From Candidatus Bathyarchaeota archaeon (GTDB taxonomy: Archaea; Thermoproteota; Bathyarchaeia; 40CM-2-53-6): 64,000 bases of DNA. Each line of letters opens with the position of its first letter. Within the stretch, counting starts at the first letter, position 1. The translations under genes and the position numbers were made by a program. Below the pieces are notes generated by a model. It searched no databases. It saw nothing but the letters and a program-made list of their open reading frames with translations, and was not told the DNA's origin. Where the stretch lies: positions 160,001-224,000 of the forward strand of contig CAVTBR010000001.1 of assembly GCA_963733055.1 (NCBI GenBank), in the 5' to 3' direction. Shown here one piece after another: positions 6 to 8,693 of this stretch.

Positions 6-1604
6 ATGCGGGAAGGTAAAGTTAGGAGTTCGCGGCTGGCGACCAGAGGTTACATTGCCAAAGCCTCATTGATCCTGTTGCTGATTACAATCTCTCTTCT
101 GTCAATTCCATTTTTCACTCTCAACGTTTCGGGCGATACTAACTCTCCGGCGTATGCACCGAACCGCAGTAAGTCACCCACTGATATACCGTCAGTCCCC
201 TCACCATCCGACAGAGTAGTGGTAAGGCTTGTTACGGAGGAGAAACTGGGGCAATTGGCCGATGGGGTCACATATAATTTCTGGACGTTCAATGGAACGG
301 TTCCTGGACCGCTCATTCGGTTGCGTGTGAATCAAACGGTTGAGATGCATATCATTAACCCCCCGAACAGCACTATGACGCATTCGATCGATTCTCACGC
401 AATCCTTGGCACCGGCGGTGGCAGTGCGTATTCACAAACGCCACCCGGTCAGGAATCAGTTTTCCAGTTCAAAGCCCTGAGAGTGGGGCTGTTCATGTAC
501 CACTGTGCAAGCCCTGACATTCCCACACACATAGCGGAAGGAATGTATGGAATGATTCTCGTTGAACCGCCCGGTGGTCTATCAAAGGTTGACAGGGAAT
601 TCTACATAGCCCAGGGCGAATTCTACACACTAGGGCCGTTCGGGCAGAAGGGTTTTCAAGGTTTTAGTTTTCAGAAGGCCAACGCCGAAACGCCAGATTA
701 CATTGTGTTCAACGGCAGAGTGGGTTCACTAACTGGCAACGGATCGCTCAGCGTTAACGTGGGAGAGACGGTTCGCATCTTTTTCCTCAACGCTGGACCA
801 AATCTCGATTCATCCTTTCACATCATAGGCGGAATGCTCGACAAGGTCTACGTTGAGGGATCGATTGCCTCGTCACCCTTACTGAACGTTCAGACAACCC
901 TCGTCCCGGCGGGCGGGTCTGTAATGATTGAGTTCACAGCGGAAGTAGCCTCGAAGCTCACTCTAGTTGATCATTCTCTCTTCAGAATACACCAAGGAGC
1001 GTTAGGCATCATAAATGTGGTAGGACCGGCAAATCCCGCAATAATCTCCTCGATAAAGAACGCCACAATCACCCAAACGATGAACATGAGCATGACCACA
1101 ACGGAGAACGTATCCAATACTTCGAGCGTCGGGGCGTCAAATAATACGGTGTTAATACTGAACTATGCGTACGTTCCCTTGGACTTGACTGTCCCGGCGG
1201 GAACAACTGTAACGTGGGTAAACCAAGATTCGGTTGGGCACACTGTTACAGAAGGTGATCCGAATTCGCCTAAACAGGCCTCTCTTCGAGTCTTTGATTC
1301 TTCAGGCGAAGCTGTTACGGGTAAGGTTGCGTTGATCGGGGCAGGCGAGAGTTGGAGTTATACCTTCACGACTCCAGGCACTTACGAATACTATTGCATC
1401 GTTCACCCATACATGATAGGCCACATTATCGTCGGCCCAACTTCCGGGTCGAATAGTTCGCAGGGTTCAGGTTACGGTGATCTAACCAACTTTACGATAA
1501 CATTCACTGGCAGGGATCTAGTAGGCCTAAGCGCCGTGGGAATAGTCGTGCTCGTGGCCTTGATGCTCGTCTTCGCGAGGTCGGGCAGAAAGAAGACCCG
1601 TTGA
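6..1604 (+). CDS. nirK: Copper-containing nitrite reductase with C-terminal cupredoxin domain and C-terminal membrane anchor
   Basis: N-terminal hydrophobic signal; CuNiR motifs HSIDSH, YHCASPDIPTHIAEGMYG, SSFHIIG, LVDHSL; extra plastocyanin-like domain (HTVT...YYCIVHPYM); terminal TM helix followed by RSGRKKTR. Confidence 0.9.
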   Translation: MREGKVRSSRLATRGYIAKASLILLLITISLLSIPFFTLNVSGDTNSPAYAPNRSKSPTDIPSVPSPSDRVVVRLVTEEKLGQLADGVTYNFWTFNGTVPGPLIRLRVNQTVEMHIINPPNSTMTHSIDSHAILGTGGGSAYSQTPPGQESVFQFKALRVGLFMYHCASPDIPTHIAEGMYGMILVEPPGGLSKVDREFYIAQGEFYTLGPFGQKGFQGFSFQKANAETPDYIVFNGRVGSLTGNGSLSVNVGETVRIFFLNAGPNLDSSFHIIGGMLDKVYVEGSIASSPLLNVQTTLVPAGGSVMIEFTAEVASKLTLVDHSLFRIHQGALGIINVVGPANPAIISSIKNATITQTMNMSMTTTENVSNTSSVGASNNTVLILNYAYVPLDLTVPAGTTVTWVNQDSVGHTVTEGDPNSPKQASLRVFDSSGEAVTGKVALIGAGESWSYTFTTPGTYEYYCIVHPYMIGHIIVGPTSGSNSSQGSGYGDLTNFTITFTGRDLVGLSAVGIVVLVALMLVFARSGRKKTR

Positions 1605-1682
1605 TATTCCCACTCGCGATAAGTTTTGACGGAGAAGAACCGTTTGAAACTTCAGAACGAACGCATATCACGGTCGCCTGAA

Positions 1683-2093
1683 ATGGAATCGCGGCGCAAG
1701 TTCCTTCGACGCGCGGCAGCCACCGCATTGGGGGCAGGGGTTCTGCTAGCTGGACTGGATTTAACCGGGACCTTTGCTGCCTCACACGAGGTGCGCTCCG
1801 TTGGAGCTTCGATAACGACAGGGGAGCAACCAAACACCCGAGCTCAACTCATCACTGTAACGGTCTTCTATTCCATGCTCACTCAGTTTACCTCTTTGAG
1901 CCAGGAAGTCTTTGTGTTACAGAGCCCCGCCTCGCTAAAGGACCTGATCAAAACCATCGCGATCAGACATCCATCCATGGCGCAGATGATGCAGATGATG
2001 TTGACGCTCGTGAATGGGGTTCCCACGAAGCCTAACGCATCCTTGGAAGGCGGAGATGTAGTGCAACTCATTCCATTGTCCGCGGGCGGATAG
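1683..2093 (+). CDS. MoaD/ThiS-like ubiquitin-fold protein with N-terminal Tat signal peptide
   Basis: MESRRKFLRRAA plus hydrophobic stretch; C-terminal LVNG...LEGGDVVQLIPLSAGG ending in diglycine. ATG 1683 preferred over TTG 1626. Confidence 0.8.
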   Translation: MESRRKFLRRAAATALGAGVLLAGLDLTGTFAASHEVRSVGASITTGEQPNTRAQLITVTVFYSMLTQFTSLSQEVFVLQSPASLKDLIKTIAIRHPSMAQMMQMMLTLVNGVPTKPNASLEGGDVVQLIPLSAGG

Positions 2094-2098
2094 AGTCT

Positions 2099-2275
2099 AT
2101 GCGACTACAGAAACGCAAGACGCGGAAGACCGAGGGTGAAGAATACACCAAGTACGTAGTCGTAATCCCGTCGGAACATGTAGAAGAATTGGGATGGGAA
2201 GTAGGACAAGAACTGGAACCTGAAGTCAAAGGAAAGAAACTTGTGATCTCACGAAAGGAAACGAAACAAGGCTAA
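2099..2275 (+). CDS. AbrB/MazE/SpoVT-like small DNA-binding protein (58 aa, below ORF-track cutoff)
   Basis: Manual translation MRLQKRKTRKTEGEEYTKYVVVIPSEHVEELGWEVGQELEPEVKGKKLVISRKETKQG; V-x-I-P...LGW..G..L pattern; starts 5 nt after previous stop. Confidence 0.75.
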   Translation: MRLQKRKTRKTEGEEYTKYVVVIPSEHVEELGWEVGQELEPEVKGKKLVISRKETKQG

Positions 2276-5300: not shown

Positions 5301-6122
5301 TCAGAGGAATAAGTGAGGAGTAGAAGAATAACCCAGAACTTTCATCGCGACTAGAGTTCCAGTAATGATCACTATAATTATGATCGCCGTGTAGTCGCCA
5401 AATCTCAGCTTTGCTTCCTCAACGTAAGATCGTGTGACGGGAGATCCAAACGCCCTGCACTCGAGTGCTATCTGGAGCGTCTGCGAGAGTTTGAGCAGGT
5501 ATAGTAGTAGAGGTGTGAGGACACTCGTGTATACACTCGCTTTTTTCCAGAATGGCATTTTATCGATGTTTCGTCCCCTAAGTTTCTGCGCTTGGATGAC
5601 CCCTGTCCAGGTCTGGAAGACCAGCGGAACAAACCTAATGCCCGTCACGAAGATCATTGTGAACTGGTAAGGAACCCTCATTTTGCCGAGCGTTGCAGCT
5701 ATCTTGGTCATGGGCGTGGTCATTGTAAGTATTGGTAGCGTGAACACAACCGCAAGGACACGCATGAAAACCAATGTTCCGAATAGGAAGCCTTCCAACG
5801 TGTAAGCCGCGTAGTTGCGATTTCCTACCATCAATGTTCCTAACTGGAAAATTACTGTGCTTCCGAACCGATAGGTGAATCCCTGGAGGATGACGAAAAA
5901 GAGGTATGTTCCGACTAGTATCTTCAGGATGACGGCTATGCGTTTGATCTCTATGCCGCCTATGATCCACCATCCGAAGAGAAATAGAATCCAGAGTCCG
6001 AGCAGGACGAAATCTAGGGCAAAGAAGCTCACCACAAAGCTTGCGAGCACGAGTAGCATTTTCGTAACCGCCTGGAGATTGTGGACCGGCGTATTCTTTC
6101 GGACATATTCGATGCTCGCCAA
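5301..6122 (-). CDS. ecfT: ECF transporter transmembrane component T
   Basis: Multi-TM; IRFVP, AQKLRG and ALECRAF coupling-helix motifs; adjacent to ECF ATPase. Confidence 0.88.
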   Translation of the reverse strand: MASIEYVRKNTPVHNLQAVTKMLLVLASFVVSFFALDFVLLGLWILFLFGWWIIGGIEIKRIAVILKILVGTYLFFVILQGFTYRFGSTVIFQLGTLMVGNRNYAAYTLEGFLFGTLVFMRVLAVVFTLPILTMTTPMTKIAATLGKMRVPYQFTMIFVTGIRFVPLVFQTWTGVIQAQKLRGRNIDKMPFWKKASVYTSVLTPLLLYLLKLSQTLQIALECRAFGSPVTRSYVEEAKLRFGDYTAIIIIVIITGTLVAMKVLGYSSTPHLFL

Positions 6123-7829
6123 TTACTGTACCCCCGTGAGTGCGTGCACCATCGAATCGACGGTGAGGATTCCTTGAGGGACTCCGTTTGGTTCTAATTC
6201 CTTATCGAGAACTGCGATTGGCGGTGGTTTGATGAACGCTCTCTTTAGAGTCTCTTGCTCGGAGAATACTTTGCTTGTTGGCCCATCCAGGAGTATCTCG
6301 CCGTTGGCCATTACGACTGTTCTATCGGCATATTGGGTCACCAAGTTCATGTCGTGTGTTATCATGATGACCGTGTGGCCTTTCTCGTTCAACTTCTTTC
6401 CGAGCCGGGCAATCCTATGCCTTCCGAGATAGTCCTGTGCAGTTGTCGGTTCATCCATTACGATTATGTCTGGCCTCATGGCAATAACCGCTGCCACCGT
6501 TAGGCTTCTTCGATCGCCAAAACTCAGTCTAAATGGAAACGTGTCCCATTGCTCTTGGAGTCCGACGAAACCCAGTGCTTCGTCGACCCTTCCTTTGATT
6601 TCGTTTTCGGGAAGCTTAAGGTTTCGAAGGCCAAATTCAACCTCTTTCTTGCAGGAGATCGTGAAGAGTTGTTCATCCGGGTTTTGCAACGCGAGTCCAA
6701 TCGATGTCGCGAGTTCTCCCGTCGTGAGTCCTTGTATGTCATTCCCTTTGAAGAGGACTTTTCCTTTTGACGGCTTCAGGAGTTTGAGGAATTGTTTGAC
6801 TAAAGTCGTCTTCCCCGAACCATTTTGTCCTATTATCGCTATCATCTCTCCCCGCCGTATCGTTAGGTTCACGTTGCGGAGAGCTTGCACAGGTGGGGTA
6901 CCAGCGTAAACATATGATAGGTCAACACATTCGAGAATCGTTTCACCTTTCGGCGGTTCTACGGTTTGGGAGAGTGCACGGGAGACATGTTTCTGTTGAA
7001 GAAATTCGATTACTAGGTTCTTCCCTTCCTCGATTGTCATCGGTACGGCTCTTTCCGGTGCTAACCTGAATCCTAGCATCGGAATCTGGGGAACTTGGAC
7101 GCCCACAGAATCTAGCAATTTGACTTTGCTGAAAACTTCTCTAGGGGTTCCTTCAGCAACGATTTCTCCTTTGCTTAGCGCGATCGAACGGTCGGCGGTT
7201 CTAAGAACTTCTTCAGAGGCGTGCGTTGTCAAGAGGATGGTCATGTTGTACTTTTCTTTCAGTTGAACCAGGGCATCCAGAACCTCACCCGTTCCAATCG
7301 GGTCAAGCTGGGACGTGGGTTCGTCGAGCACAAGCAATTCTGGTTCCATGCTGAGACCAGCTGCGAGAACGAGCCTCTGTTTTTGTCCTCCTGAAAGTTC
7401 CGAGGGGGAACGCGATTCAAGTCCCGTTAGGCCGACTGCATCAAGGGCCCATTTGGCCCTTCGCAGGATTTCTTCTCTGGGTACGCCCAGGTTCTCCGGA
7501 CCGAAGGCGACTTCCATCAGGACATCGGGGTTGATCAATTGCCCCTCAGGGTCTTGCGTTACGAAACTAATCTTCTGAGCCAGTTCGTAGACTGGGTGCT
7601 CGTAAACATTCATTCCCGCGACGATAGCGCTTCCTTCCGTCGTTCCTTGGTAGATGTTCGGGATGATACCCGTCAGATGATGGCAGAGGGTTGTCTTGCC
7701 CGCTCCGTTTGCACCCAGTACCGCAATGATTTCGCCCTTAGTGACCTTGAAGCTGATATTCTTTAGCGCTTTAGCGCCGTCGGGATAAGAAAACGAAAGA
7801 TTCTGAACGTCGACGATCACATCGTCCAT
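6123..7829 (-). CDS. ecfA: ECF transporter ATPase, two fused ABC domains
   Basis: GANGAGKT/LSGGQ/LDEPT and GQNGSGKT/LSFGD/MDEPT; QDPEGQ and QNPDEQ Q-helix motifs. Confidence 0.92.
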   Translation of the reverse strand: MDDVIVDVQNLSFSYPDGAKALKNISFKVTKGEIIAVLGANGAGKTTLCHHLTGIIPNIYQGTTEGSAIVAGMNVYEHPVYELAQKISFVTQDPEGQLINPDVLMEVAFGPENLGVPREEILRRAKWALDAVGLTGLESRSPSELSGGQKQRLVLAAGLSMEPELLVLDEPTSQLDPIGTGEVLDALVQLKEKYNMTILLTTHASEEVLRTADRSIALSKGEIVAEGTPREVFSKVKLLDSVGVQVPQIPMLGFRLAPERAVPMTIEEGKNLVIEFLQQKHVSRALSQTVEPPKGETILECVDLSYVYAGTPPVQALRNVNLTIRRGEMIAIIGQNGSGKTTLVKQFLKLLKPSKGKVLFKGNDIQGLTTGELATSIGLALQNPDEQLFTISCKKEVEFGLRNLKLPENEIKGRVDEALGFVGLQEQWDTFPFRLSFGDRRSLTVAAVIAMRPDIIVMDEPTTAQDYLGRHRIARLGKKLNEKGHTVIMITHDMNLVTQYADRTVVMANGEILLDGPTSKVFSEQETLKRAFIKPPPIAVLDKELEPNGVPQGILTVDSMVHALTGVQ

Positions 7830-7901: not shown

Positions 7902-8693
7902 TCACCAGATGACGTCCGGTGGTTTCGCCATTCCGCTTCTTCTTAGAGCTTCAGTGATTGGCACTGCAATCAGGGTCATCAGTACTGCGAAGAGTGGCAT
8001 GTACCACGTGTAGATTCCCCAAGCCATGAGGTAGAGTAACGCGGACGGGTATGCGAATAGTATCCAATATAGCCAGTAGGATGGGGAAATATACCACGCG
8101 TTCATTGCCATCCATGTTCCTATGAAGAGTGCGATTGTTCTTTGCCTTGGGCTAGCGCTCCTGGCCCAATCGTAGATGTATTTCGTGCCGATTGGCGAGA
8201 GAAGTAGGATTATGGGAAGAAGCCAGTAGTACAGGGTAGCAAGGAAGTACGAGCTCGTCGAAATTGGAGCCCATCCTCCACTGACACCTGGGTAGAAGTA
8301 TAGCGCTATGAAGAAAGTTGCTGTCATGAGAATCTGCCAGCCTAGAAAGATCCACTTTGTCTTTGTCTTCTTCATGTTGAATGCTAACGCCACGAAGATA
8401 GCAGGTAACATGACTACGAGTGTGGCGTCAATGATACCTAGCGGAAAGGCTGGTGGTGCGATGAACATGCCGATGATTCCTCCCACGACTGCAGCCGCGA
8501 TCCCTCCAACAGGGCCAAGAAGTAAGGGTGCAATTCCTGCAAGTACAGTTGCCAACGGCCAGAATCCTCCACCCCCAGCGTACGGTAGAACCGGTACAAG
8601 GGACGTAACCCCAATCAAGGCACCGTAAACGGCCACCCACGCGATTGGAGTCCCGAATATGTACAATCGGCCCTTAGCTTTGGATTGCGTCAA
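7902..8693 (-). CDS. Probable ECF substrate-binding (S) component
   Basis: Very hydrophobic; LLGPVGGIAAAVVGGIIG motif; directly upstream of ecfA/ecfT. Confidence 0.7.
   Translation of the reverse strand: MTQSKAKGRLYIFGTPIAWVAVYGALIGVTSLVPVLPYAGGGGFWPLATVLAGIAPLLLGPVGGIAAAVVGGIIGMFIAPPAFPLGIIDATLVVMLPAIFVALAFNMKKTKTKWIFLGWQILMTATFFIALYFYPGVSGGWAPISTSSYFLATLYYWLLPIILLLSPIGTKYIYDWARSASPRQRTIALFIGTWMAMNAWYISPSYWLYWILFAYPSALLYLMAWGIYTWYMPLFAVLMTLIAVPITEALRRSGMAKPPDVIW

Follow-up and report, generated by a model that had tools for sequence, protein, structure and literature searches.

The small beta-grasp proteins MoaD, ThiS and SAMP are regarded as cytoplasmic, since the ATP-dependent adenylation of the Gly-Gly end is the first step of their chemistry, and outside the membrane there is no ATP for an E1 enzyme. 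SoxY of the Sox system is a small carrier exported by the Tat pathway, which works outside the cytoplasm with a flexible C-terminal arm rich in glycine; its fold is different, and its sulfur sits on the Cys of a C-terminal motif. Rieske proteins and molybdopterin oxidoreductases are classic Tat substrates. Among copper proteins, AccA, a chaperone of the PCuAC family, supplies copper to the NirK AniA, according to the available portion of one article (PMC13006917). Beta-grasp domains are common adaptor modules in the accessible part of a review (PMC1949818), where a term search found nothing on an exported MoaD-like protein.

In the window, the whole 64,000-nucleotide stretch of archaeal DNA analysed here, we examined a gene for a ubiquitin-like protein (Ubl) that would combine a familiar fold and family with a new compartment and a new, tightly conserved partnership (Table 1). 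Like MoaD, ThiS and SAMP, Ubl has a terminal Gly-Gly and matches the Pfam family PF02597 above the cut-off. What sets it apart is that its domain follows a conserved twin-arginine signal and a linker and is predicted to lie outside the membrane, and that it adjoins copper enzymes, never MoaE or an E1 in the loci examined. It would resemble SoxY as a small, putatively Tat-exported protein with a C-terminal arm, and differs from it in being Cys-free and in having a Gly-Gly tail. The earlier note on this DNA had described a Tat motif, a MoaD/ThiS fold and an intact Gly-Gly in a gene directly downstream of nirK. The open reading frame, the Pfam match, the AlphaFold model with its Foldseek search and the conservation of the family all agree with this description, as do the gap and the upstream frame listed in Table 1. 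The note had also claimed that no such system is described, and indeed we found no account of an exported MoaD/ThiS protein or of a nirK-adjacent Ubl in the full-text literature searched, although supplementary gene lists might name one. Public annotation calls members of the family only 'MoaD/ThiS family protein' or 'molybdopterin converting factor small subunit'.

Table 1. Features of the nirK-Ubl segment (nucleotide positions in the window)
Feature	Position	Strand	Details
NirK, copper nitrite reductase with C-terminal plastocyanin-like domain	6..1604	+	NCBIfam Cu_nitrite_red (TIGR02376) 325 bits, cut-off 296.3
nirK-Ubl spacer	1605..1682	+	78 nt
Ubl open reading frame	1683..2093	+	136 aa plus stop
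Putative N-terminal Tat signal or signal anchor	1683..1784	+	residues 1-34: MESRRKFLRR, uncharged 11-25, Asp26, LTGTFAAS
SRRKFL twin-arginine motif	1689-1706	+	residues 3-8
Ser/Thr-rich variable linker	1785..1844	+	residues 35-54; low pLDDT (46-54)
MoaD-fold beta-grasp domain	1845..2090	+	residues 55-136; Pfam ThiS, model, fold search
SMAQMMQMML Met-rich stretch	1974-2003	+	residues 98-107, within the MoaD-fold domain
Terminal Gly-Gly	2085-2090	+	residues 135-136
Stop codon TAG	2091..2093	+	directly after Gly-Gly
AbrB/MazE-type small protein	2099..2275	+	58 aa; Pfam MazE_antitoxin 28.1 bits, cut-off 24.7

We infer that nirK and Ubl are co-transcribed. The AbrB/MazE-type gene begins 5 nt past the Ubl stop and is found directly 3' of Ubl in 6 of 52 metagenome loci (L036-L041, 75-86% identity), so that it is possibly part of the Ubl unit in the closest relatives only. 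For positions 1-2300 of the window, an index of sequencing runs listed no RNA run and one soil DNA run, with 0.26 of the sampled words. The Ubl protein has neither a Cys nor an evident metal motif. Fusions of its domain within longer proteins were not seen in queries with the single protein and with an 85-row alignment, which is weak evidence on this point.

Several lines of evidence define the fold. The Pfam ThiS match covers residues 69-136 with 28.4 bits (cut-off 22.5). An AlphaFold model built from an alignment of 85 relatives gave block means of pLDDT of 88-98 for residues 55-131 and of about 46-55 for the signal and linker. The top Foldseek matches of this model were MoaD chains, namely 6jbz_B (E 6e-8), 1vjk, 5mpo and 1fm0_D, and SAMP1 (3po0) was matched as well. 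Ubl thus shares the beta-grasp fold of these proteins, with a target TM of 0.87 to mycobacterial MoaD (6jbz_B) and with P. furiosus MoaD and human MOCS2A among the matches. At E<=0.001, the matches listed were MoaD, SAMP, SUMO, NEDD8, TGS and other beta-grasp chains.

The host genome also encodes a separate, canonical MoaD of 84 aa without a signal, to which Ubl is 30% identical in a gapless alignment (E 4e-13). Ubl itself falls under the NCBIfam cut-offs for moaD_arch, moaD and SAMP1. With the model of canonical archaeal MoaD (moaD_arch, TIGR01687) it scores 21.4 bits against a cut-off of 49.5, and with the SAMP1 model it gives no match, while the paralogue in the same genome reaches 17.2 bits against a cut-off of 60.

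A word-indexed search returned 22 relatives at 49-100% identity, and an exhaustive HMMER search of 1.84 billion representatives returned 99 clusters at E<=1e-3, a set that falls to 35 at E<=1e-10. Gly-Gly forms the C-terminal end in 94 of the 99 clusters, the other five being fragments, frame-shifted or unrelated. It also ends 21 of the 22 aligned relatives, the exception coming from a contig of 893 nt. Since this end is kept in a family whose mean column identity is 27%, the very C-terminus appears to be under selection.

Members with a recorded name or taxon are archaeal; the one record named 'Acidiferrales bacterium' belongs to a genome that is placed in the genus of the window. The ESM Atlas holds one matching cluster, a ThiS family of 71 members, all archaeal where a taxon is recorded. 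Within the order of the window (105 genomes), the family occurs in 8 of the 22 other genomes of the genus and in none of the 82 elsewhere. A phylum-wide sample of 401 genomes gave no match at E<=1e-12 except the host genome. In a second archaeal order, which holds loci L003-L005 and has one record assigned to Nitrososphaerales, 20 of 301 sampled genomes gave a match at E<=1e-15. The 24 places found there comprise 14 signal-bearing members, nine plain signal-less MoaDs and one weak partial match below threshold (L123). The family is therefore rare and patchy. The L003 member adjoins a Vgb-lyase-like beta-propeller, and further members stand beside genes without a clear theme.

The N-terminus of Ubl is of the Tat type, with a twin-arginine consensus (SRRKFL) followed by a mildly hydrophobic, uncharged stretch of 15 residues (residues 11-25, AAATALGAGVLLAGL). 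The NCBIfam model TAT_signal_seq (TIGR01409) matches residues 3-22 with 16.6 bits, just under its cut-off of 16.7. Across the 22 aligned relatives, ESRRxFLR is conserved at 90% or more, exceeding the conservation of the linker, which is poorly conserved and varies in length (17 residues are absent in P0019-P0022). Beyond the hydrophobic stretch, Ubl has TFA/AS where relatives have VLS/VP, and no clear cleavage site is seen.

In the wider family, an [RK]R pair followed by at least 12 uncharged residues is present in 56 of the 99 clusters (RR in 54), with stretches 13-35 residues long. Fewer than 25 residues precede the domain in 22 clusters; three of these resemble ordinary MoaDs, and the remainder seem to be fragments or genes whose start was called too late. 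The other 21 have more residues ahead of the domain but no RR, and most of these begin inside the same kind of hydrophobic stretch, which points to late start calls in the main. Among clusters with a clearly complete N-terminus, none lacks the RR signal. The twin-arginine signal that the earlier note had reported for this protein is thus shared by its homologues.

The host genome encodes TatC (G000:C3, 145.2 bits). Because the twin-arginine signal is conserved and a TatC gene is present, we infer that Ubl is exported via Tat. The other strict RRxFL candidates of the genome are two Rieske proteins, with RRxFLR signals similar to that of Ubl, and one molybdopterin oxidoreductase. As in Rieske and other Tat signal-anchor proteins, the twin-arginine of Ubl is joined to a hydrophobic stretch that in many members is long enough to stay in the membrane; unlike the Rieske proteins, Ubl has no visible cofactor-binding motif. 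In archaea no outer membrane would keep a small soluble protein at the cell. This fact, the length of the uncharged stretches and the variable linker rich in Ser and Thr together suggest that Ubl is probably tethered at the membrane by its signal stretch and linker.

The upstream neighbour is a three-domain NirK, with the Pfam domains Cu-oxidase_3, Cu-oxidase_2 and a C-terminal Copper-bind (plastocyanin) domain. Residues H126, D129, H131, H166, C167, H175, M180, H272 and H323 are invariant across 23 aligned homologues, and we take these to be the type-1 and type-2 copper sites and the catalytic residues. Its N-terminus is a Leu/Ile-rich hydrophobic signal or anchor of the Sec type without a conserved RR, and the alignment shows a C-terminal membrane anchor. 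Judged from these features, NirK appears to be exported unfolded via Sec. A co-fold prediction of NirK residues 60-480 (23-row alignment) with Ubl residues 52-136 (85-row alignment), run without controls, gave scores of 0.15 and 0.01 and so counts neither for nor against a contact.

The pairing of the two genes is widely kept. Among 52 metagenome loci, taken with their flanks from relatives at 43-73% identity, a three-domain NirK lies directly 5' of Ubl on the same strand in 44; in the remaining eight the contig begins less than 150 nt 5' of Ubl, so these are uninformative. In the order of the window, the Ubl clade is found in seven genomes, the window's included and all of one genus, always beside a three-domain NirK. 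Their arrangements vary: in G443 Ubl lies at a contig end, after a cupredoxin tail; in G439 it is grouped with hemerythrin, divergent from HTH_10-NirK; and in G450 both NirK and Ubl are broken by stops or frame shifts. In the second order, a NirK-plastocyanin gene immediately precedes 9 of the 14 signal-bearing members, and the other five do not adjoin NirK. The Ubls of that order are 29-43% identical to that of the window where BLAST aligned them, and since the genes are still adjacent at this divergence, the NirK-Ubl pair is kept across lineages. Linkage to copper enzymes, proposed in the earlier note as a test, is therefore found in all three samples.

NirK also occurs without Ubl. In G454 (89% complete), an intact three-domain NirK is accompanied by HTH_10 and hemerythrin, and Ubl was found neither on this contig of 4.2 kb nor in the rest of the genome. 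Ubl is likewise missing from G451, where NirK is broken, and from two genomes of a sister genus, whose NirK has two domains. Hemerythrin, an HTH_10 regulator, NirK and Ubl are clustered repeatedly among the loci, and in the host genome an HTH_10 regulator and a hemerythrin-like gene lie just 5' of the window. Further out, 2-14 kb 5', is an operon for a molybdopterin oxidoreductase, predicted to be Tat-dependent, with Fer4_11, NrfD, a NarJ-like chaperone, MobA and MobB.

A second context is also conserved. On contig 3 (G000:C3) the host genome encodes another member with a signal, 117 aa long, beside an operon of a COX2-like protein (E 0.0028), Fer4_11, a 645-aa NrfD-like protein, an anchored 333-aa protein and a 186-aa protein. 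The 333-aa protein weakly matches the CuA domain of NosZ (E 7e-4) and the additional cupredoxin domain in a NirK structure (E 0.0098), and its His96, Cys133, Cys137 and Met140 are invariant. At L111 in the second order, a 327-aa homologue, a 166-aa homologue (34% identity, E 5e-17) and Ubl are consecutive on one strand. As far as the protein sequences indicate, both conserved contexts would consist of membrane-bound, extracytoplasmic proteins of the cupredoxin type.

We next consider the Met-rich stretch, in which the earlier note had seen a candidate Cu(I)-binding cluster. In the 85-member alignment, which consists of members of at least 100 aa ending in Gly-Gly and in which Gly-Gly is hence invariant by construction, Met99, Met103 and Met105 are Met in only 11, 21 and 10 rows, so that the cluster as a whole is not a feature of the family. 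What stands of the proposed conservation of Met and Gly-Gly, apart from the C-terminal end, is Met102 (80 of 85), Met106 (83 of 85) and column 66, which is Met in 78 of 85, the Ubl of the window having Leu66 and Met65. Such Met conservation is notable given the low mean column identity, and the HPSMAQMM region is kept among the 22 closer relatives. Other near-invariant residues are Tyr63 (84), Glu75 (84), Pro82 (80), His96 (81), Gly112 (83) and Leu121 (82).

Comparison with ordinary MoaDs narrows what can be specific to the exported proteins. Met99, Met102 and Met106 align with Leu in the MoaD of the host genome, the latter two with core Leu. Among the nine signal-less MoaDs of the second order, read by eye, Met stands at the 102 position in six and at the 106 position in four; since cytoplasmic MoaDs carry Met there too, Met102 and Met106 are no clean copper signature. 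Tyr63, Glu75 and His96-Pro97 are common to ordinary archaeal MoaDs. Only Met66 therefore appears clearly specific to the exported family. From beta-grasp topology we assume that the Met66 loop, helix 97-103, the start of strand 106-110 and the C-terminal tail share one end of the domain.

Taken together, these data make it quite probable that Ubl is an exported partner of these copper enzymes. The fuller statement, that it is a MoaD-derived extracytoplasmic accessory of the adjoining copper enzyme, we regard as evenly balanced, and copper delivery specifically is put forward tentatively, as somewhat less than probable. Ubl would fold in the cytoplasm, be exported folded via Tat, and be tethered at the membrane surface by its hydrophobic signal stretch and Ser/Thr linker, next to the anchored NirK. 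NirK, apparently exported unfolded via Sec, would need its three coppers outside the cell. Ubl would act on it through the surface around the Gly-Gly tail, where the conserved Met and His should lie, and its role would most likely be NirK maturation, that is, copper insertion, as with the PCuAC-type chaperones of bacterial NirK. The sister clade would likewise serve the CuA-like cupredoxin/NrfCD membrane complex.

Maturation by copper loading is favoured because NirK seems to be Sec-exported and must be metallated outside, because both gene contexts are cupredoxin proteins, because PCuAC and Sco gave no match in the host genome (96% complete), and because bacterial NirK requires a dedicated chaperone, as stated in the available portion of PMC13006917. 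A CopC domain is present in that genome, so known copper-handling proteins are not wholly missing. The proposed role resembles that of PCuAC/AccA in that a small exported protein is dedicated to a copper nitrite reductase and offers His and Met as candidate ligands. Ubl differs from PCuAC/AccA in having neither sequence nor fold relation to it and in lacking the HXnMX21/22HXM motif. No homology to extracytoplasmic Cu(I) chaperones of the PCuAC, CusF or CopC kinds was found, Pfam and NCBIfam giving only ThiS/MoaD and the Tat signal. Two further points count against a copper-delivering accessory. The use of Tat may merely reflect a fast-folding domain. The invariant Gly-Gly is the feature least well explained, a chaperone having no obvious need of it; this end fits better with E1 activation before export, for which only Tat would serve, or with a tail-in-pocket contact.

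The first of these alternatives holds that the Gly-Gly of Ubl is adenylated by a cytoplasmic E1, thiocarboxylated or conjugated, and then carried out by Tat to serve the neighbouring copper enzyme, where the thiocarboxylate would donate sulfur or an acyl group, or act as a soft ligand of copper. We consider this unlikely, if well short of negligible. It draws on the retention of Gly-Gly in a divergent family and on the closeness of the domain to the true sulfur carriers and modifiers MoaD and SAMP1. An E1 requires a folded substrate, which suits Tat and not Sec, and the host genome has four ThiF-family E1 genes. Genes of the Moco pathway are often near, including MoaA (L021), MobB-FmdE (L023, L044, L076) and, in the host genome, MobA and MobB. 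However, no E1, MoaE, JAMM or sulfurtransferase gene adjoins any locus examined, nor was a linked protease gene found in these loci. The number of E1 genes does not track Ubl across 23 genomes of the genus (most have two, carriers two to six), which gives no phyletic pattern of a dedicated E1. We know of no need of NirK for sulfide, and Gly-Gly could persist simply for insertion into a partner's pocket, as the tail of MoaD enters MoaE. A bolder form of this idea, in which Ubl is the first ubiquitin-like sulfur carrier or modifier to act outside the cell, is more doubtful still. Its Gly-Gly would be adenylated and thiocarboxylated, or given a cargo, by a cytoplasmic E1, the folded protein exported by Tat, and cupredoxins of the NirK/CuA type matured by an activated C-terminus flanked by conserved Met and His, for example as a Cu(I)-thiocarboxylate donor in an ATP-free space.

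The tail-in-pocket contact underlies a different possibility, also improbable in our estimation, that Ubl is a cofactor-free structural or docking subunit whose tail sits in a pocket of the anchored cupredoxin enzymes. Such a subunit would organise or stabilise the enzymes at the membrane, or link them to electron donors. The adaptor use of beta-grasp domains, the lack of Cys and of a clear metal motif, and the fact that both conserved contexts appear to be membrane-bound redox complexes are all in keeping with it. On the other hand, Sec would be enough for a plain adaptor, and the near-invariant Met66, Met102 and Met106 are left unexplained.

Some Tat substrates are known to travel by hitch-hiking on a small subunit that bears the signal, and Ubl, with its conserved signal, might likewise bind a folded, signal-less partner in the cytoplasm and carry it across the membrane. 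This is very unlikely, since NirK and the CuA-like protein each begin with their own hydrophobic signal and no conserved signal-less neighbour was seen in the loci examined. Least probable of all is that Ubl is not exported, its true start lying downstream or its N-terminus being no signal, and that it is a cytoplasmic MoaD paralogue supplying Moco to the molybdoenzyme operon 5' of the window: that operon and the public names of the relatives speak for it, but the operon was not seen in the other loci examined, where NirK was, the genome has its canonical MoaD, from whose model Ubl scores far apart, and the conservation of ESRRxFLR above the linker, like the RR signal in every clearly complete N-terminus, argues for export.

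As an exported accessory of copper enzymes or otherwise, Ubl represents a family in which the Gly-Gly end is retained, a Tat signal has been acquired and the gene is tightly linked to one for a copper nitrite reductase. Either activated ubiquitin-like chemistry crosses the membrane, or the fold has been reused for an extracytoplasmic job such as copper loading. The metal supply of archaeal extracytoplasmic copper enzymes is poorly understood, here in a genome without a PCuAC or Sco match, and NirK has a central part in the turnover of nitrogen oxides in soils and peat. The Ubl family offers a small, tractable protein for both questions.

The gene encoding Ubl, the MoaD/ThiS-fold protein with a predicted Tat signal and a terminal Gly-Gly, is closely followed by that of an AbrB/MazE-type protein, which is found, at 75-86% identity, only in the six closest metagenome loci. 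Farther downstream, the ECF-type transporter module and the 263-aa ORF seem unrelated to the Ubl finding. In one genome of a second archaeal order (locus L003), the gene after a signal-bearing family member encodes a Vgb-lyase-like beta-propeller protein instead of NirK, the copper nitrite reductase.

Features in the window and at related loci (L numbers, loci fetched with their flanks; G000, the window's own genome)
Feature	Location	Strand	Remarks
AbrB/MazE-type protein, 58 aa	window 2099-2275	+	starts 5 nt past the Ubl stop
CbiQ-type and double ABC ATPase genes (ECF-type transporter module)	window 5301-7829	-	
Unassigned ORF, 263 aa	window 7902-8693		after the ECF-type transporter module
Molybdopterin oxidoreductase gene cluster	G000 contig 1, about 150800-159900 (L034)		directly upstream of the window
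Second signal-bearing MoaD-like paralogue, 117 aa	G000 contig 3, 12543-12893	-	L007 1498-1851; L032 6001-6351
Anchored 333-aa protein with cupredoxin-like domain	L032 4275-5273	+	homologues in alignment A5
Vgb-lyase-like beta-propeller protein, 507 aa	L003 6468-7988	+	
MobB-FmdE fusion or FmdE-domain gene	L023 6761-7684; L044; L076; L027 6306-6686	+ (L023); - (L027)	adjoining or near Ubl

In G450, another genome of the window's genus, both NirK and the adjoining Ubl gene are interrupted by stops or frame shifts (contig 15, locus L022), while the HTH_10 gene there is still partly matched (domain positions 1-40 of 53). The pattern points to joint decay of NirK and Ubl in this one genome.

Ubl loci also show repeated but loose proximity to molybdenum-cofactor genes, including the FmdE-domain genes tabulated here and MoaA, which lies 2.7 kb from Ubl in L021. 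The public record of one such contig (G438 contig 170; L002 and L023) is titled Acidiferrales bacterium. This label is probably wrong, since genome taxonomy places G438 in the genus of the window's archaeal genome and L001, from the same genus, is titled Bathyarchaeia.

The second MoaD-like paralogue carries an ERRSFLR motif, a short linker, and the C-terminus AGG. Its adjoining operon encodes COX2-like, Fer4_11, 645-aa NrfD-like, 333-aa anchored cupredoxin/Ig-like, and 186-aa proteins, and the last three genes are likewise consecutive in L111, from a different archaeal order. In the 333-aa protein and its homologues, His96, Cys133, Cys137, and Met140 are invariant within A5, with the motif C-I-I-P-C-x-G-M. 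Relative to the solved structure of a cupredoxin domain from NirK, the second cysteine lies approximately at the place of the second histidine ligand. The protein may hold an unusual copper site.

Upstream of nirK, the cluster in L034 encodes an 831-aa molybdopterin oxidoreductase with a Tat signal, together with Fer4_11 and NrfD. The cluster also contains a chaperone gene of the NarJ/TorD type and two ferredoxin-like genes, and is flanked by MobB and MobA; hemerythrin and an HTH_10 regulator lie between it and nirK. Together these genes look like a nitrogen-oxide respiration island.
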